Positions 1 to 40,671 of a DNA stretch of 64,000 nucleotides are shown piece by piece. The translations under genes and the position numbers were made by a program. The notes under the pieces are model-generated. The model searched no databases, was not told the DNA's origin, and saw only the letters and a list, made by a program, of their open reading frames with translations. The stretch is from Nautiliaceae bacterium (GTDB lineage: Bacteria > Campylobacterota > Campylobacteria > Campylobacterales > Nautiliaceae), in NCBI GenBank assembly GCA_039831155.1, contig JBDONT010000043.1:96001-160000 (forward strand), written 5' to 3'. The first letter of the stretch is position 1. Every line of letters begins with the position of its first letter.

Positions 1-1590
1 GTTAGTGAAGCCGTTGTAAAAATTTTAGTCGCTTTTGCTTTTTATTTGGATTCAGCCGTTAGATATCAAAAGGTTAAGACCTTTTTTAAACGTTTGATGA
101 ACGATGATGATTATCTGCCAAAAAAAGCGTTTGATTTTTTTATGCTTTTTTTGGTTATAAGCAGTGTAGGGATTTTGCTTTATGATATTAAACACGAATT
201 GAATCCTTGGATAGAAAATTTCGATTTTTATTTTGTTACGATTATTTTTGCCATTGAATATATTATCAGGCTTTGGGTTTATAATGATGTTCATAAAATA
301 ATTTTAGAAGAGTATGAAGAGTCTACCTTTTTGGAAAGACCCTTTTTACTTAAAAAAGTTTTAAAAAAAATCCTATTAAAGAAATGGGAATATATTAAAT
401 CCCCTTTTGCGATTATAGACTTTTTGGCTATTTTACCAGGATTTAGGTCTCTTAGAATTCTTAGGATTTTTGTAATTTTTAGGCTTTTTAAAGTTTTACG
501 ATATACAAAAAGCATTAATACGTTTTTGGAAGTTTTAGCTAGTAAAAAATTCGAACTTACGATATTACTGTTGGCAGTAGGGTTTGTGACTTTCATAGGT
601 GGTGCTGTTATTTATGTTTTTGAAGCCCACGTAAATGAAAAGATAGATACGATTTTTGATGCAGTTTATTGGTCTTTAATTACTATTTCAACCGTAGGTT
701 ATGGTGATATCACCCCCGTAACGGAAGAGGGTAAAATCCTTACTATGATTTTGATTATAGTAGGGATTGGATTTATTTCGTTTTCAACTTCTATTATAGC
801 TTCCGCTTTTACGGAAAAACTAGAAGAATTGAAAGCCGATAGGGTATTTAGAATTATTAAAAATATGAACGATATTTATTTGATTTGCGGTTATTCGAAT
901 GAGGCTGAAATTTTATGCGAGAGGTTTAAAAAGGATAATTTAAATTTTGTAGTTGTGGATATGGATGAGGAAAAAGTTAATGAAGCCATATTGAAAGGTT
1001 ATATAGCCCTAAAAGGCGATATTACTCAAAAAAGCTTTTTGCAAGTTTTGGATTTTTCGAAAATTTCAAAAATATTTGTTTTGACAAACAACGATATAAG
1101 TAACGCTTTTATAGTACTTAGTGTAAAAGCATTTAGCAAAGGAGCTGAAATTATAGCTCTTGCTAATGATGAGAGAAACGTTAGTAAAATAAAAAAAGCC
1201 GGAGCAACTTACGTAGTAGTACCTTCTACCGTAACGGCACTTTTAACGGCAGAGTATATAGGTAACCCTATAACGTTTGAAGTAATAGACGCTATTCTTA
1301 CCGAAAGAAGAAACGCTATTATTGATGAGATTATAGTAATTAAAGATTCCATTTTAGACGGTAAACTGGTGGGTGATATCGATTTTGACAAGTATAAAAT
1401 TATTCTTTTTGGAGTTTTGAAGAAAAAAGAATCCTCTCTTTTAAACGAGACTTTACAGATTGAAAAGGGACACTTTTACTTTAACCCTCCTTTTGATTTA
1501 AAATTTGAAGAGGGGGATATTTTAGTAGTAATGGGGTATAGTGTGAGTGTTAATTATTTCAAATATCAGATAGAAAAGAGTAGTATATGA
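1..1590 (+). CDS. 6-TM potassium channel with C-terminal RCK (TrkA-N/TrkA-C) domains; 5' end probably lies before the window
   Basis: Selectivity filter TVGYGD, S4-like RSLRILRIFVIFRLFKVLR, RCK Rossmann ICGYS. Frame 1 is open from base 1 (VSEAVVKILVAF...), so the TTG at 46 is probably not the true start. Confidence 0.9.
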   Translation, partial: VSEAVVKILVAFAFYLDSAVRYQKVKTFFKRLMNDDDYLPKKAFDFFMLFLVISSVGILLYDIKHELNPWIENFDFYFVTIIFAIEYIIRLWVYNDVHKIILEEYEESTFLERPFLLKKVLKKILLKKWEYIKSPFAIIDFLAILPGFRSLRILRIFVIFRLFKVLRYTKSINTFLEVLASKKFELTILLLAVGFVTFIGGAVIYVFEAHVNEKIDTIFDAVYWSLITISTVGYGDITPVTEEGKILTMILIIVGIGFISFSTSIIASAFTEKLEELKADRVFRIIKNMNDIYLICGYSNEAEILCERFKKDNLNFVVVDMDEEKVNEAILKGYIALKGDITQKSFLQVLDFSKISKIFVLTNNDISNAFIVLSVKAFSKGAEIIALANDERNVSKIKKAGATYVVVPSTVTALLTAEYIGNPITFEVIDAILTERRNAIIDEIIVIKDSILDGKLVGDIDFDKYKIILFGVLKKKESSLLNETLQIEKGHFYFNPPFDLKFEEGDILVVMGYSVSVNYFKYQIEKSSI

Positions 1591-2273
1591 GAATAGCGAT
1601 TTTTGGGTTTGATGATTTCGGAGAGAGAGTTGCCAGGTTTTTAAATAAAAAAGATACAATTATCGTTGTTTTAGACGAGAAAGAAGAGGCGAGGGCTAGA
1701 GAAAAGCTTTATGATGTGGTTAAACTTCACAATATAGACGATGATGAAATAAAAAAAATAGATGAGTTTGATATAGCTATTGCAGTTTTGCACGATGAAG
1801 ATAAAAATCTGTTTTTATGTTTAACTCTTAGGGATTTGTATCCTCAAAAAAGAATTATCGCAAAAGTTGCGAATAAAGATAACGAATATAAATATAAATT
1901 AGCAGGAGTTAATAAACTTATCAATCCTTATGAGGTTACTGCTAATAGAATTATGACTATTTTAAAAAAGCCGCTTACTTTAAAAGTTATTGAAGAGATT
2001 ATTTTTCAAGATAACAGATTATCGTTTGCTGAAATTGTAATTCCTAAAAACTCTTTTTTAGACGGGAAATTTATTAAAGATGTTTTTAAAGATATTTCGT
2101 CTTTGTATAATCTTTTGATTATAGGAATGGTCGATAAAGAACTTTCCGAAAACGTTCAGTTTGTTACAAAAGGGTATAATCACAAAATAGACGCAGGAGA
2201 TGTGTTGATTGTTGTTGGGGATAAAGATGAGATAGAGAGATTTAAAGATGATTTAAATATCGTTAAAGGATAA
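1587..2273 (+). CDS. Stand-alone TrkA/RCK-family regulatory subunit
   Basis: N-terminal IAIFGFDDFG Rossmann fold and TrkA-C-like tail IDAGDVLIVVG; overlaps the channel stop codon. Confidence 0.85.
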   Translation: MRIAIFGFDDFGERVARFLNKKDTIIVVLDEKEEARAREKLYDVVKLHNIDDDEIKKIDEFDIAIAVLHDEDKNLFLCLTLRDLYPQKRIIAKVANKDNEYKYKLAGVNKLINPYEVTANRIMTILKKPLTLKVIEEIIFQDNRLSFAEIVIPKNSFLDGKFIKDVFKDISSLYNLLIIGMVDKELSENVQFVTKGYNHKIDAGDVLIVVGDKDEIERFKDDLNIVKG

Positions 2274-23115: not shown

Positions 23116-23802
23116 TTAAAGAAGAGGTTTATAGGGAGTTGCGTAAGCTTTTTTCGCTTTTACTTCTACTATTTCGTATTCGTATGGTTTTAGGGTGTTT
23201 GGGATAATTACGGCTGATAATTTGTTTCCGTATACGCACCCCGTATCAATTCCTAAGGAATTTTTCTTTTTGTAAGGATTTTTAAAAGGGGTGTGACCGT
23301 ATACTATAAAGCTTTCGTGCCCTTTGTATACATCCGCCCAAAAGTATCCTTTTTTATTGTGATTCAGAGGTAAAAAATTATCGTTTTTATCCACTTCTCT
23401 GGTAAAAAGCAGCAAATTTAATTGATGAAAAGAAGGGTTGTTTAAATGGATTTTATTTGTTATACCGGCGTGTATTACGGTTAGACGGTTGGTTTTAAAA
23501 AAATATGGCATAGAAGAGATAAACTCAAAATCCTCTTTTTTTAATTTAGGATAAATTTTTTGTTGGTCTTCATCAAGAATGACTTTTCTTCCCCACCATT
23601 TTCTAAGGTGTTTGTATTCGTGGTTTCCTAGAAGGGAGAAAATTTTGTTTTTTTTTACGTATCTTAAAGTTTCAACGCAAAAAGGGCCTTTATCTAAAAT
23701 ATCTCCTACGCATATTTCAAAAGAGTTTTTGGGAATTAATTTTCTTAATTCCTCAAACTCTTCCAAACATCCGTGAATATCACCGTATATTACATATTTC
23801 AT
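23116..23802 (-). CDS. Metallophosphoesterase (PrpE/ApaH-like)
   Basis: GDIHG, GDILDKG, GNHE, HAG, GHTP, IDTGCVYG. Confidence 0.9.
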   Translation of the reverse strand: MKYVIYGDIHGCLEEFEELRKLIPKNSFEICVGDILDKGPFCVETLRYVKKNKIFSLLGNHEYKHLRKWWGRKVILDEDQQKIYPKLKKEDFEFISSMPYFFKTNRLTVIHAGITNKIHLNNPSFHQLNLLLFTREVDKNDNFLPLNHNKKGYFWADVYKGHESFIVYGHTPFKNPYKKKNSLGIDTGCVYGNKLSAVIIPNTLKPYEYEIVEVKAKKAYATPYKPLL

Positions 23803-24197
23803 TTGAACTGTTTTAGATAATTACACGCAGATTTATTGCCTAATTTACAAGCTTTTTTTAGTAAAAGTACGGCTTTATTTGTATCTTGTTTTACGATGTT
23901 TCCTTTATAGTAATAATAAGCCAAAAGAGTGCAGCTGTCCGCATCATTTAGTTTGCAACCTTTTTTATAGAATGAAACCGCTTTATTTAAATCTTTTTTA
24001 GTACCGATTCCTTTGTTGTACATATATCCTACCATTCCACACGCATAAGCGTCGTTTTTTTTACATCTTTTTTCAAAACCTTCAAAAGATTTTTTATATT
24101 CACCTTTTAAATAAAGTTTTAAATCCGGGTCGTTTGTAGTTCCGTGTTGAGCAAATAAGAAAACTGCACTTAAAAGTGTTAAGATAAATTTTTTCAT
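23799..24197 (-). CDS. Secreted Sel1-repeat protein
   Basis: Signal peptide and Cys-containing SLR repeats (KKGCKLNDADSC, KKACKLGNKSAC). Confidence 0.88.
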   Translation of the reverse strand: MKKFILTLLSAVFLFAQHGTTNDPDLKLYLKGEYKKSFEGFEKRCKKNDAYACGMVGYMYNKGIGTKKDLNKAVSFYKKGCKLNDADSCTLLAYYYYKGNIVKQDTNKAVLLLKKACKLGNKSACNYLKQFK

Positions 24198-24232
24198 TTT
24201 TAGTCCTTTTTTTCAAATTATATCAAAAGTAT

Positions 24233-24247
24233 CTCCGAACCTCGGAG
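24233..24247 (-). promoter_or_regulatory. Putative bacterial SECIS hairpin
   Basis: CTCCGA-GGT-TCGGAG; the stem starts 13 nt and the loop 19 nt after the TGA of the OsmC gene. Confidence 0.55.
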
Positions 24248-24254
24248 CTTTGTT

Positions 24255-24734
24255 TTAGCTTCAAGCTACGCAACCAAAGCCGTCGTCATCTTCTTCGAAA
24301 TCGTGTGAGTGGTTGTCGTTTCCTGATATAATGCTTTCTTTAAAGGCGATAGCTTCGCCGTTATTGTAAATTGAATAGTAAATTTTACTTGTGTTTCTTA
24401 CGGTGTTTATAGTGCTGCAATACGTTTCAAGAGAACTTAATACCCATCTCCTTGCAGTCATAGCGTCTGCGTTTGATTCGAATTTATAAATAAAATGAAA
24501 CTCCGTAAAAATTCTAGGGTATGTCTCTTTTCTTTTATATTCGATTTCTAAAGTAAAGTTTTTTAGTTCGTACCCTTTGTTTTTTGCCATTTCCACAACG
24601 TCATAAGCCGAGCAGTTTCCAAGCCCGGTTATGAAATAGTCTATAGGGGTGTATTTTTTAGGGTCTATTATAATTACGTCTTTTCCGTTTGTAGCTTCGT
24701 ATAAGTGGTTGTTAAGGTGTCTTATTTTAATCAT
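24255..24734 (-). CDS. OsmC-family protein, probably a selenoprotein ending ...GCVA-U-S (TGA at 24261-24263 recoded)
   Basis: OsmC Cys pair ([14 protein letters not shown]) and YPRIFT. Tail TGC GTA GCT TGA AGC TAA plus the downstream hairpin. The family call is firm; the Sec extension is inferred. Confidence 0.8.
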
Positions 24735-26103
24735 TATTCTCCTTTAAAAACTTTTCGAAATATTTTATTTGTTCTTCAACCCTGCTAGGAGATGTGGCAC
24801 CGTAACTTTTTCTGCTTTTCATTGAGTTTTCAAGACTTAAATCCACATCATTTCCTATTCTTTCATCTATGCTTTTTAACTCTTCAAGGCTTAAATCGCT
24901 TAAATCAACTCCCTTTTCTTCTGCTAACGCAACTGCACGTCCTGTTATATGGTGGGCTTCTCTAAAAGGTATTCCTTTATTTACCAGATAATCGGCTAAA
25001 TCGGTAGCCGTTAAGTGACCTTTTTTACAAGCTTGTAGCATTTTGTCTTTGTTGATAGTCATAGTTTTTAAAGTTTCATTTAAAATAGTTATTGAAATAA
25101 GAGCTGTTTTTACGCTGTCAAATACTCCTTCTTTATCTTCTTGAGTGTCTTTGTTATAGGCTAGAGGAAGTCCTTTCATTACGGTCAGTAAAGCCATTAA
25201 ATTCCCGTAAGCTCTTCCCGTTTTTCCTCTTATAAGTTCCGGTACGTCCGGATTTTTCTTTTGAGGCATAATAGAACTTCCGGTTGAATATTCGTCACTT
25301 AATGTAATAAAGCCAAATTCACTTGTCGACCAGATAATAAGCTCTTCACTGATTCTGCTTGCGTGCATCATAAGCATTGAGATGTTAAATAACAGTTCAA
25401 GTGCAAAATCTCTGTCACTTACCGTATCAAGACAGTTTATTGTAGGTTCGTCAAATCCTAGGGCTTTTGTGGTTTCGAATCTGTCTATGTTATGAGGAGT
25501 ACCGGCAAGTGCCGCACATCCTAAAGGGTTTTTGTTGTTTCTTTTATAGCTTTCGATAAATCTTTCGTAATCTCTTTTAAACATACTGGCGTACGCTAAC
25601 ATATGATACGCAAAACTGATAGGCTGGGCGTGCTGAAGATGAGTCATTCCCGGAAGTAGGGTGTGTTTGTGTTCTTTTGCTATATTTACGAAAGTTTTTA
25701 TTAATTCTTTGATTTTATCTGCAATTTCTAAGTTTCTTTTCAAACTCCATCTTCTGAAATCCACTGCCACCTGGTCGTTTCTGCTTCTTGCGGTATGGAG
25801 CTTTTTACCGGTATCTCCAATTAATTCGATAAGCCTTTTTTCTATAGCCATATGCAAGTCTTCATCGCTTATATCCCACTTAAATTCGCCTTTTTCTATC
25901 TCTTCTTTTATTTTTAAAAGACCTTCTTTTATTTTTTCAGCTTCTTCTTTAGTTATGATTCCTTGATTGGCTAGCATTTGAGAGTGGGCTATACTGCCTT
26001 CTATGTCTTCTATGTAAAGTTCTTTATCAAACATTATAGATGCATTAAATTCGTCTAAGAGTTTAGCGGCACTTTTAGAGAATCTTCCTCCCCATAACTT
26101 CAT
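24727..26103 (-). CDS. argH: Argininosuccinate lyase
   Basis: MKLWGGRF start at 26103, [21 protein letters not shown]. Confidence 0.97.
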
Positions 26104-26168
26104 AAGCGTTCCTTTTTTGGTAGAATTATACAATAATGAAACTTTAAGGCAAAACAAAGGAGTCCGGG

Positions 26169-26441
26169 ATGATGATAAACAATATAAATTCTCTTCAAGC
26201 ATATCAGACTTTAATTGATGTAAACGCAAACAATATAGCTAACGTAAATACCGAAGATTTTAACTCCACCGATGCCAGAATAGTTGATAAACTTGATATT
26301 TCTTCCTATCAAGAAGAGGGAGTAAACATCACAAAAGAACTTACGAACCAAATAGTAATTGAAGACGGATTTAAAGCTCAACTTCCAGCTATAAAAACTC
26401 AAGAAGAGATGGATAAAACCATTTTAGATATTAAGGCTTAA
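26169..26441 (+). CDS. Small flagellar basal-body-rod motif protein
   Basis: ANNIANVNT motif and C-terminal VNITKEL...KTQEEM..TILDIKA typical of rod/hook D0 helices. Confidence 0.75.
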
Positions 26442-38871: not shown

Positions 38872-40671
38872 TTATCTAAAATTTAATTCTTTAAAATATT
38901 CAATAATATTTTTTGCGTCTTTTTCGTTTAAAATTTCTTTTAACTCTTCAAAAGACGCTTTTTTTATATTCTCAAACGTACCGAAGTAGTTTAGTAGTTT
39001 TGTCATTTTTGCTTTTCCTATACCTTTTATTTTTAGAAGCTCTATTTCTTTATCTTTTTTTATTTTGATTTTTCTATGAAAACTAATAGCAAATCTATGA
39101 GCTTCATCTCTTAACATTTGCAAAAACTGAAGCCTTTTATCGTTTTCGCTAAGCTCCATTTTTCCTTCTTCAAAAAATATTTTATCTTTTGCTTTTCCTT
39201 TTGCCCGGTTGGCTTTTGTATTTATTTTTTCTTTTGAAATTGCTAAAATATCTACATTTACACCGGTTGAGTTTATTATCTCTTTTGCTATATTAAATTG
39301 CCCAGCCCCTCCGTCAATTAGCCAAAGTTCAGGTGGAGGGTCTTTATCAAAAGATTTTGCTCTTCTTGTTAGAAGTTCTCTCATTTGAGAATATTCATCT
39401 TTTCCTTGAAGATGGTGATGTCTATACTCTTCTTTTTTAAATTTTCCATTCTCCCATACAATCATTGCTCCAACTATTGCTTCTCCTTGCATGTGAGAAG
39501 TATCGAAAATTTCGATTTTATAAGGGATGTTTTGTAGATTAAATAGTTTTTTAAGTTCTATTAAGATAGTGTTTTCTTTTTGGTTTTTAATAATCTCAAG
39601 GGCGTTTATTTTTGCTAAGTTTATTAAATTTTTTCTCTCTTTTGTGGTTGGTGTTAGTATTGATATTTTTTTGTTAAATTTAGTGCTTAAAACTTTACTT
39701 AGCCACTCTCTCTCTTCAAAATCATCCCCTACTAAAATTTTAGATGAGGTAAAAGGAGTTTCGTTAGAATAAAATTCTAAAATAGCCCTTGTATAAATTT
39801 CGCCTTTTTCAGGAGTTGTTTGAGAATTTATTATATTGTGAGAACTTGCTACTACTTTTCCGTTTCTTACAAAAATTCTAATAACTACTGCTTTTTTATC
39901 AAAAATTTCTACTACAAATATATCTAAATCTTCAAGTTTTGCTAAATCTACGTTTGAGTAGATTTGTGCGTTTTCTATGGCTTTTATTCTATCTCTAATT
40001 TCTGCTGCTTCTTCAAATTGTAAATTTTCGGCATATTTTTCCATTTTTTTATAAAGAATTTCTAAGAGCTTTTCTTTATTTTCGATAAGTTCTATAGCTT
40101 TATTTACTATTTGTTTATATTCACTTTTAGTTATTTTTCTTTCACAAGGGGCAAGACATCTTTTCATTTGATAATAAAGACAAGCTTTTTTTCCTCTAAG
40201 ACACGATTTACTCTGAACTAAAGGAATCTCTTCATAAATTGTTTTTAAAATAGCGTTTGCTCCACTGCTAAAGGGTCCGAAATATTTTATATTTTTTCCT
40301 TTTACTACTTTTCTTGTAATTTGAGGCATTGGAAAGTCTTCTGATAAGTTTATGTAAATATACGGATAGGTTTTATCGTCTCTTAAGAGAATGTTATATT
40401 TTGGTTTTAGCTGTTTTATAAGTGAATTTTCTAAAATAAGAGCGTCGTTTTCACTCTCTACTACTATGTAATTTAGGTCTTTTGCTTCGGTTATCATTTT
40501 GTAAATTCTTGGGGATAGGTTTTGGGCTGGACGAAAAGGATTAAATCTAAAATAACTTTTTACTCTTTTTTTTAAACTTTTAGCTTTTCCTATATAAAGA
40601 AGTTTTCCGTTTTTATCAAAGTATTGATAAACTCCCGGTTTATCCGGCAGGTTTTTTATTTTTTCTATCAA
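38872..40671 (-). CDS. uvrC: Excinuclease ABC subunit C
   Basis: PGVY, YIGKAKSLKKRV, KPKYNILL, IDGG.GQ, RDEAHRFAI, HhH tail. Confidence 0.96.
   Translation of the reverse strand: MIEKIKNLPDKPGVYQYFDKNGKLLYIGKAKSLKKRVKSYFRFNPFRPAQNLSPRIYKMITEAKDLNYIVVESENDALILENSLIKQLKPKYNILLRDDKTYPYIYINLSEDFPMPQITRKVVKGKNIKYFGPFSSGANAILKTIYEEIPLVQSKSCLRGKKACLYYQMKRCLAPCERKITKSEYKQIVNKAIELIENKEKLLEILYKKMEKYAENLQFEEAAEIRDRIKAIENAQIYSNVDLAKLEDLDIFVVEIFDKKAVVIRIFVRNGKVVASSHNIINSQTTPEKGEIYTRAILEFYSNETPFTSSKILVGDDFEEREWLSKVLSTKFNKKISILTPTTKERKNLINLAKINALEIIKNQKENTILIELKKLFNLQNIPYKIEIFDTSHMQGEAIVGAMIVWENGKFKKEEYRHHHLQGKDEYSQMRELLTRRAKSFDKDPPPELWLIDGGAGQFNIAKEIINSTGVNVDILAISKEKINTKANRAKGKAKDKIFFEEGKMELSENDKRLQFLQMLRDEAHRFAISFHRKIKIKKDKEIELLKIKGIGKAKMTKLLNYFGTFENIKKASFEELKEILNEKDAKNIIEYFKELNFR

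Follow-up and report, generated by a model that had tools for sequence, protein, structure and literature searches.

A predicted selenoprotein of the OsmC superfamily with selenocysteine near the C-terminus in Nautiliaceae

The DNA considered here is a stretch of 64,000 nucleotides (nt), called the window below, from a Nautiliaceae bacterium (assembly GCA_039831155.1, contig JBDONT010000043.1, positions 96,001 to 160,000, forward strand). On its minus strand lies an open reading frame (ORF) for a protein of the OsmC superfamily, which runs from an ATG at 24732-24734 to a TGA at 24261-24263 (24261..24734, 157 amino acids). A comparison of this gene with its relatives indicates that the TGA is very probably decoded as selenocysteine (Sec) rather than read as a stop. 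Past the TGA there are a Ser codon, AGC (24258-24260), and a TAA (24255-24257), and the C-terminus upon read-through would be ...GFGCVAUS, with U standing for Sec. The preliminary description of this DNA, which was made from the sequence alone, had pointed to the terminal TGA, the CVAUS generated by read-through and the TAA one codon later, and the sequence bears out all three. It had also supposed that standard annotation would miss a Sec form, as has indeed happened: the public entries are labelled 'OsmC family protein' or 'putative redox protein', those named calls that are of the TGA type (records from Nautilia, Lebetimonas and Caminibacter) stop at 156-157 amino acids, and none of the named database homologues is annotated with Sec.

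For Sec to be inserted, a ribosome at UGA codon 158 would have to be met by SelB with Sec-tRNA(Sec), recruited by a hairpin that starts 13 nt further on. As only the Ser codon and the UAA follow the UGA, this hairpin would lie in the 3' untranslated region (3' UTR). After insertion of Sec, Ser would be added and translation would end at the UAA. Failure to insert Sec would yield the 157-residue form that is present in the databases.

The source assembly (1.53 Mb, 96.7% complete) encodes the machinery for Sec, as the Sec reading in the preliminary description presupposed. The genes for tRNA-Sec (67.7 bits, cut-off 47; anticodon TCA according to ARAGORN), selA (519.4 bits, cut-off 267.9), selB (319.9 bits, cut-off 242.25) and selD (356.3 bits, cut-off 125), the last with one in-frame TGA, all score above the curated cut-offs. 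A Sec-type formate dehydrogenase was not found in this genome, where the best match reaches 125 bits against a cut-off of 814 and has no internal stops. The Sec machinery thus needs other clients; judging from targeted searches, it seems to serve SelD and two proteins with a C-terminal Sec.

Selenocysteine or cysteine at one position of the orthologues

Of 30 representative genomes of the same bacterial family, 26 carry exactly one orthologue, and the C-terminal ends of all 26 were read from the DNA. A TGA is present at the same codon in 14 of them, followed by one or two sense codons and then, in all 14, by TAA. These ends can be written as C-[VIA]-A-TGA-(S/G/N/GG)-TAA, except that the divergent locus L045 has GF after the TGA. 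The other 12 orthologues have no TGA; they end in G-C-A-C-C-N-[S/T/A] (11 genes) or G-C-C-C-A-H (one gene), and each of the 12 is closed by TAA. When the sequences are aligned with MAFFT, C-V-A-U-S is placed on C-A-C-C-N-S, with Sec falling onto Cys.

A larger set of homologues was collected from the databases (106 proteins at E <= 1e-10, of which 8 fragments were dropped and 98 kept). The Sec column of these 98 holds Cys in 50 and Trp in 2; of the remaining 46, 32 are cut at C-x-x, 13 have a shorter tail and 1 has Ala. Sorted by their tails, 32 end in C-x-x, and are truncated calls, 2 in C-V-A-W-G and 49 in C-x-C-C, while in the remainder one Cys or two lie close to the C-terminus. Thus, the preliminary description was right in expecting homologues with a conserved TGA or an aligned Cys at this codon, the former in 14 and the latter in 12 of the 26 orthologues, with Cys also common in the database set.

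Some of these sequences call for separate mention. P0004 and P0018, the two with Trp, are metagenome calls in which TGA was taken as Trp (...GFGCVAWG), i.e. the same short extension is present in other samples. L045 (genome G002, about 1390-1890, minus strand) reads ...SCGGG-TGA-GGG-TTT-TAA and has a GGT-loop hairpin at the same spacing, making it a C-x-x-x-U variant; it shows 43% identity, sits on a long branch and comes from a genome with selA and selD.

Across the phylum, 401 genomes were sampled, of which 48 contain a homologue. At the 23 more distant loci that were read, a Gly-rich linker leads to one or two Cys close to the C-terminus, at a distance of 2-4 residues, and there is no acidic run. 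The retention of a C-terminal Cys in these 23 loci indicates that a flexible C-terminal thiol is the ancestral feature; in the Nautiliaceae it would have been supplemented by an acidic run together with Sec or a second or third Cys. Three distant homologues with TGA ends (L046, L050 and L053) were considered as further Sec forms and rejected. Two of the genomes lack a selB above the cut-off, and the third gene runs directly into the next ORF; all three TGA codons were taken as ordinary stops. At L053 (genome G096) the end ...GVCCRS-TGA is followed without a gap, and in the same frame, by a YchJ-like ORF with a SEC-C motif; selB is above the cut-off in that genome.

Within the family, the form of the gene can be set beside the presence of the Sec machinery. 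selA is found in 13 of the 14 genomes with the TGA form, and the fourteenth, which is 55% complete, has a TGA-containing selD. Among the 12 genomes with the Cys form, selA is found in one (G004); six of the 11 that lack it are 91-99% complete. The division recurs inside a single genus, g4: the TGA form is found in every one of its five selA-positive genomes and the Cys form in four of its five selA-negative genomes, while the fifth of the latter gave no match to the protein. The core domain, with the tail columns excluded, was used to compute a maximum-likelihood tree (35 rows including 9 outgroups). The genes in this tree follow the genera, and the five Sec and four Cys genes of g4 form one clade (support 97/94). 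Since Sec and Cys subclades lie within one g4 clade, at least two switches between Sec and Cys are needed.

The hairpin behind the TGA codon

The hairpin that follows the TGA in the source genome has a 6-bp stem and a GGT loop, and a lower stem is possible (24248-24252 with 24224-24228, minus strand). The preliminary description had placed such a hairpin 19 nt past the TGA. Stem and loop are as it stated, and the distance fits the start of the loop (22 nt when counted from the T); the stem itself, however, begins at 13 nt. The first 45-50 nt past the TGA fold with an energy of -8.2 kcal/mol. The published model of the bacterial Sec insertion sequence (bSECIS) has a loop of 3-9 nt, an upper stem of 4-16 bp, a G within the first two loop positions, 16-37 nt between UGA and loop and a minimum free energy (MFE) of -7.5 kcal/mol or lower (PMC13188914, in excerpt). 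The loop, stem, 19-nt spacing and energy of the source-genome hairpin all agree with this consensus.

A 6+3+6 hairpin is present in all 14 TGA loci, with the stem starting 14-17 nt and the loop 20-23 nt from the T/U of the TGA. The geometry is that of the bSECIS model in all 14, and the energy is within the MFE limit in eight. In a gap-free alignment of the 14 loci (13 distinct sequences), double-sided compensatory changes are seen at each of the six stem pairs. Pairing is found in 97.4% of the cells; shuffling lowers this to 52%, and shifting the partner column by one position gives 58-62%. These pair counts are biased in favour of structure, however, because the register was set by maximal pairing. 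The first base of the loop is G in 14 of 14, and the second is G or T. Because no Sec-type formate dehydrogenase was found, selD was used as the comparator for the Sec insertion sequence (SECIS). In the source genome and 11 relatives, the selD SECIS likewise forms a short GC hairpin; its loop is GGA in nine of the 12, GG falls at nt 20-21, and the loop at the TGA-type OsmC loci starts at a matching distance.

When the gene is of the Cys type, no such hairpin is found; a stem with 5 of 6 pairs occurs at other positions in two of the 12 loci. The distance from the OsmC stop to the ATG of the next gene is 9-10 nt in 8 of the 12 Cys-type loci versus 49-67 nt in 11 of the 14 TGA-type loci. Thus, the hairpin-bearing spacer comes and goes with the TGA.

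The source genome by itself gives a less telling picture. A strict pattern was defined as TGA followed by a 6-bp stem with at least three GC pairs, starting 14-17 nt from the T, and a loop of G[GT]N. This pattern is not enriched, with 4 sites in the 1.53-Mb genome versus 0-6 in five mononucleotide shuffles, and chance is not excluded on the source genome alone; consequently, its significance rests on the comparison with relatives. Only the identity of the four sites, and not their number, is informative: one is the OsmC gene, one is the Sec codon in selD, one lies in a further gene whose C-terminal TGA aligns with Cys, and one has no ORF.

Several observations weigh against decoding of the TGA as Sec, and most of them would fit an ordinary stop. 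The protein would then finish with ...GFGCVA, where the public entries also end; the hairpin would serve as an intrinsic terminator, or would stabilise the mRNA as a stem before the next gene, which encodes a Sel1-repeat protein, and the TAA would be a back-up stop. In the source genome, TGA is the stop of 353 of 1373 long ORFs (26%), and a second in-frame stop follows two or three codons on in 83 of these 353. The hairpin with ATACTTTT is accepted by a loose terminator-like scan, which flags it on both strands; in this respect the preliminary description, which had seen no U-run directly behind the hairpin, was correct in that ATAC comes first, but TTTT then follows. In addition, 6 of the 14 hairpins are weaker than the MFE limit (-3.9 to -7.1 kcal/mol); these belong to organisms that we presume may be warm-growing, being from vents. 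There are also limits to the co-occurrence argument, since G004 has selA, selB and selD and yet the Cys form, and since only two phylogenetically independent contrasts of Sec form with selA are available, both of which agree (sign test, p 0.5), a number too small for any test to reach significance.

However, an ordinary stop leaves unexplained why Cys occupies the TGA column in all 12 orthologues without the TGA, and why Sec machinery accompanies 14 of 14 TGA forms versus 1 of 12 Cys forms. It likewise does not account for the in-frame TAA in 14 of 14 together with the loop G, the 20-23 nt spacing and the six covarying pairs. A T-run, here five or more T within the 8 nt that follow the stem, is present at only 2 of the 14 loci. 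The preliminary description had left it open whether the hairpin is only a terminator; the fixed spacing, the invariant loop G, the rarity of T-runs and the confinement to TGA-type loci argue that it is more than that. A weak hint comes from RNA-library contigs (one vent sample, two runs, zero mismatches), which span the Sel1 gene, the hairpin and the OsmC gene. These are compatible with read-through transcription across the hairpin, although such contigs are uninformative on strand, on transcript level and on where transcripts end, and carried-over DNA may contribute to them. Taken together, these points make an ordinary stop very improbable, and Sec remains by far the better reading of the codon.

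Two minor searches concern the same spacer. An Rfam scan of 24100-24400 at E <= 10 gave four chance-level matches only, all far below the gathering scores, and none of them to a model of this element. A TG-n-TATAAT-like motif was seen by eye in the spacer of four g1 loci (24217-24225 in the window); the promoter scan did not list it.

The OsmC domain and possible roles of its tail

Profile, predicted fold and two conserved cysteines place the protein in the OsmC superfamily. The Pfam family OsmC (PF02566) is matched with 48.1 bits (cut-off 27.5). An AlphaFold2 (AF2) model computed from the 98 sequences has a mean predicted local distance difference test score (pLDDT) of 82.5. It shows a confident OsmC fold over residues 1-137, where the average exceeds 90 in most blocks of 10 residues, and a tail (residues 138-159) with values below 50. 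The best Foldseek match of the model is 1VLA (TM0919; E 1.2e-9). Both core OsmC cysteines, which the preliminary description had reported as retained, are present as C41 and C106 and align with the Cys pair of TM0919. In the 98 homologues C41, E103 and the tail residue C155 are invariant, and R68 and C106 are found in 96 and 92, respectively. Six proteins (P0019, P0022, P0023, P0025, P0026 and P0028) form a subclade with Ser in place of C106, in which C41 and a C-G-C-C tail are kept. The Sec forms keep exactly one C-x-x-U pair, the middle Cys having been lost (C-x-C-C to C-x-A-U).

It is plausible, though short of probable, that the tail is a swinging redox arm, in which the Cys155/Sec158 pair exchanges with the core Cys41/Cys106 site. 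The preliminary description had proposed a built-in reductant or a metal-binding site, which is compatible with what was observed. The thiol/selenol pair of the tail would form a selenenylsulfide. After reduction of a hydroperoxide, the tail would resolve or re-reduce oxidised Cys41, present as a sulfenate or as a Cys41-Cys106 disulfide, and it would in turn be reduced by a cellular reductant. This function is suggested by the C-x-x-U motif, the co-invariance of C41 and C155, the dispensability of C106 where the tail is rich in Cys, the loss of the middle Cys upon gain of Sec and the disorder of the tail. The genes for reductants that were sought in the genome also enter the argument. Ohr takes electrons from dihydrolipoamide (title of PDB entry 6EBG). 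In the source genome neither lipoyl synthase, lipA (best 26.6 bits versus 310), nor GcvH (no match) was found, so that the lipoyl reductant used by Ohr may be unavailable. Canonical thioredoxin reductase was not found there either (best 45 bits versus 343).

A parallel is provided by animal thioredoxin reductase, whose flexible C-terminal Gly-Cys-Sec-Gly arm forms a selenenylsulfide and shuttles electrons between a buried dithiol centre and a partner. The concept is alike, both in the C-terminal Cys/Sec arm and in the existence of a UGA-terminated product without the selenol. The animal arm is also cited in the discussion of an earlier paper on C-terminal Sec (PMC4607533, in excerpt). However, the animal enzyme has an unrelated flavoprotein fold, and its Cys and Sec are vicinal rather than arranged as C-x-x-U.

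Two observations speak against the redox-arm function. The gene context at 11 related loci contains no redox or sulfur partner, as only argH and the Sel1 gene recur, and the single tail Cys of the more distant relatives fits a carrier as well as a redox role. A more elaborate version of the redox arm is doubtful. It would make the protein a self-contained selenium-dependent hydroperoxide reductase, whose OsmC site is recycled by its own tethered Cys-x-x-Sec arm standing in for the lipoyl arm that reduces Ohr/OsmC. The supply of selenium would then switch the product between a 157-amino-acid thiol form and a 159-amino-acid selenol form, and the protein would be, together with a secreted ...PAG-U protein described below, among the few selenoproteins so far in the genome.

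If Sec is inserted, the tail could instead be a site for the binding or delivery of a soft metal, formed by the acidic/His stretch together with C-x-C-C or C-x-x-U. An HxH and an acidic run do precede the Cys/Sec cluster in the tails of the source genus, many Cys forms end in C-x-C-C-N-H, and Sec may be a metal ligand in several families with a C-terminal Sec (PMC13188914, in excerpt). His is not conserved in the Sec-type tails, though, and is missing from five TGA-type tails of one genus; in the distant relatives, the tail contains one Cys but lacks an acidic/His stretch. Moreover, the gain of Sec with loss of the middle Cys leaves a classic two-residue redox motif, and the core Cys41 is invariant. 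A metal site is considered unlikely.

Slightly less likely still is a tail that serves as a covalent carrier arm for sulfur (persulfide or polysulfide) or for selenium, to be loaded and unloaded by the OsmC domain. SoxY, with its C-terminal Cys arm, would be a parallel. What is conserved across the wider family is one Cys at a distance of 2-4 residues from the C-terminus, borne on a flexible Gly-rich linker, and the named homologues come from sulfur-metabolising genera of vents and sediments. Against a carrier stand the 11 loci checked, where no sulfur-relay genes lie beside the OsmC gene, and the retention of the OsmC catalytic pair with Glu103 and Arg68, which fits a peroxidase-type site.

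Among proteins already described, the closest in kind is an OsmC-like selenoprotein of marine metagenomes with a UxxT motif, reported by Zhang et al. in 2005 (PMC1088965, in excerpt) and again in the 2026 catalogue of 119 selenoprotein families (PMC13188914, in excerpt). It is represented by the model NF041052, 'OsmC-related (seleno)protein', and shares with the protein here the superfamily fold PF02566 and the use of Sec. In the marine form, however, Sec is in the UxxT motif. The protein here has Cys at both core positions, and its Sec, the penultimate residue, is carried by an additional tail; the score against NF041052 is 23.5 bits, well under the cut-off of 95. Table 1 of the catalogue lists the UxxT form only, with no OsmC protein having a C-terminal Sec, and the UxxT form is likewise the sole OsmC selenoprotein in the tables of the 2005 paper, which concerns the Sargasso Sea.

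The placement of Sec has a precedent in DUF466/KCU-star of the Campylobacterales, which has a C-terminal Sec with the SECIS after the stop, and Cravedi et al. in 2015 predicted that there are more such families (PMC4607533, in excerpt). DUF466/KCU-star and UXX-star likewise have Sec at or next to the C-terminus after a Cys, Cys-ending homologues and a SECIS past the stop, and are easily missed by BLAST-type searches and by annotation pipelines (same source). DUF466 is a protein of about 70 amino acids with a CU end, unlike the 137-residue OsmC domain with its C-x-x-U-x arm, and there is no sequence relationship; the KCU-star/UXX-star models NF033934, NF041114 and NF041211 gave no match in an NCBIfam scan at E up to 1.

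The nearest solved relatives belong to the YhfA/TM0919/Aq_1549 branch (PDB 1ML8, 1VLA and 2E8C/2EGT), in which the OsmC-fold domain here is also placed, with profile E values of 3.7e-17 to 1.5e-9 and template-modelling (TM) scores of 0.61-0.69. Both core cysteines of TM0919 and Aq_1549 align with those of the protein here. The chains of 1VLA, 2E8C and 1ML8 are 132-150 residues long, and the matches stop at profile positions 118-125 of 160; these relatives lack both Sec and anything that corresponds to the tail. The YhfA-type model NF008009 is matched with 39.5 bits, below its cut-off of 138. Literature pairing OsmC, Nautilia or Caminibacter with selenoprotein or selenocysteine gave no description of the form predicted here, although supplementary tables of large selenoproteome screens could hold one, and the excerpt of PMC4607533 does not contain the words OsmC, Nautilia or Caminibacter.

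As a predicted new selenoprotein subfamily, the Nautiliaceae protein is well supported bioinformatically. To a catalogue whose 119 families, as tabulated, include OsmC only with an active-site Sec (PMC13188914, in excerpt), it would contribute a selenoprotein that has an enzyme fold and bears its Sec on a flexible tail. It also illustrates how selenoproteins with Sec next to the C-terminus are systematically missed, given that the product looks complete and aligners drop the last residues. For annotation there is a simple remedy: where a member of the family ends in C-[VIA]-A, its reading frame should be continued past the TGA. The matched set of Sec and Cys orthologues, with its two or more switches, one of them within a genus, is suited to testing the advantage of Sec over Cys, and equally to testing the recruitment of SelB by a very small hairpin in the 3' UTR. 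Such a protein also helps to explain why these vent bacteria retain the costly Sec machinery in a genome in which a Sec-type formate dehydrogenase was not found.

Neighbouring genes and a second candidate

The features of the locus are collected in Table 1.

Table 1. Positions of the OsmC-type gene, its parts and its neighbours in the window
Feature	Position	Strand	Basis
Full coding sequence of the predicted OsmC-fold selenoprotein, TGA taken as Sec, 159 amino acids	24255..24734	-	ORF and translation, Pfam OsmC, AF2 model
TGA probably read as selenocysteine, residue 158	24261..24263	-	Conserved TGA or aligned Cys in homologues, co-occurrence with Sec machinery
C-terminal tail, predicted disordered, residues 138-159: variable His/Asn stretch, acidic run, GFG, Cys155-Val-Ala-Sec158-Ser	24255..24323	-	pLDDT <50; Cys155 in 98/98
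Codon of core Cys41, long helix, first OsmC cysteine	24612..24614	-	Invariant in 98/98; aligned to Cys of TM0919 and Aq_1549
Codon of core Cys106, motif SLETYCS, second OsmC cysteine	24417..24419	-	Cys in 92/98, Ser in 6/98; aligned to second Cys of TM0919
SECIS-like apical hairpin in the 3' UTR: 6-bp stem, GGT loop, CTCCGA-GGT-TCGGAG	24233..24247	-	Fold, covariation in 14 TGA loci
argH (argininosuccinate lyase), upstream; stop overlaps the OsmC start by 8 nt (24727-24734)	24727..26229	-	ORF list
Secreted Sel1-repeat, cysteine-rich protein, downstream	23799..24197	-	Pfam Sel1, 66.7 bits

A second gene with a predicted C-terminal Sec lies outside the window, between selA and the gene for tRNA-Sec (genome G000, contig C32, about 39255-39604, plus strand; L001:1072-1419). 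It encodes a secreted protein of 116 amino acids that ends ...GKLPAG-TGA-AGC-TAA and that matches no Pfam or NCBIfam family; a hairpin with a GGT loop follows at an equal distance. The arrangement ...PAG-TGA-(AGC)-TAA plus hairpin is found in at least nine distinct sequences from relatives, all in genomes with selA or, in the case of G026, a TGA-containing selD, and genomes without the machinery have ...PAGC[S/G]-stop. Cys-ending copies are also present in G002 and G004, which bear the machinery, and as second copies in G023 and G024. The 116-amino-acid protein is thus a probable second C-terminal selenoprotein on comparative grounds, and the two predictions together show a lineage that apparently uses 3'-UTR hairpins for C-terminal Sec more than once.

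On the upstream side of the OsmC gene, the true start of argH is probably about 42 codons inside the listed ORF, which begins with TTG. An argH-type ORF stands directly before the OsmC-like gene in 7 of 11 related loci from two bacterial families (L028, L036, L047, L050, L057, L058 and L064), and the linkage is conserved without an obvious functional meaning. Paired cysteines occur in the Sel1 repeats of the protein encoded downstream, which also carries a signal peptide; we take it to be reminiscent of the cysteine-rich proteins of Helicobacter. In the Cys-type loci, the start of this Sel1-repeat gene sits behind a GGAG.

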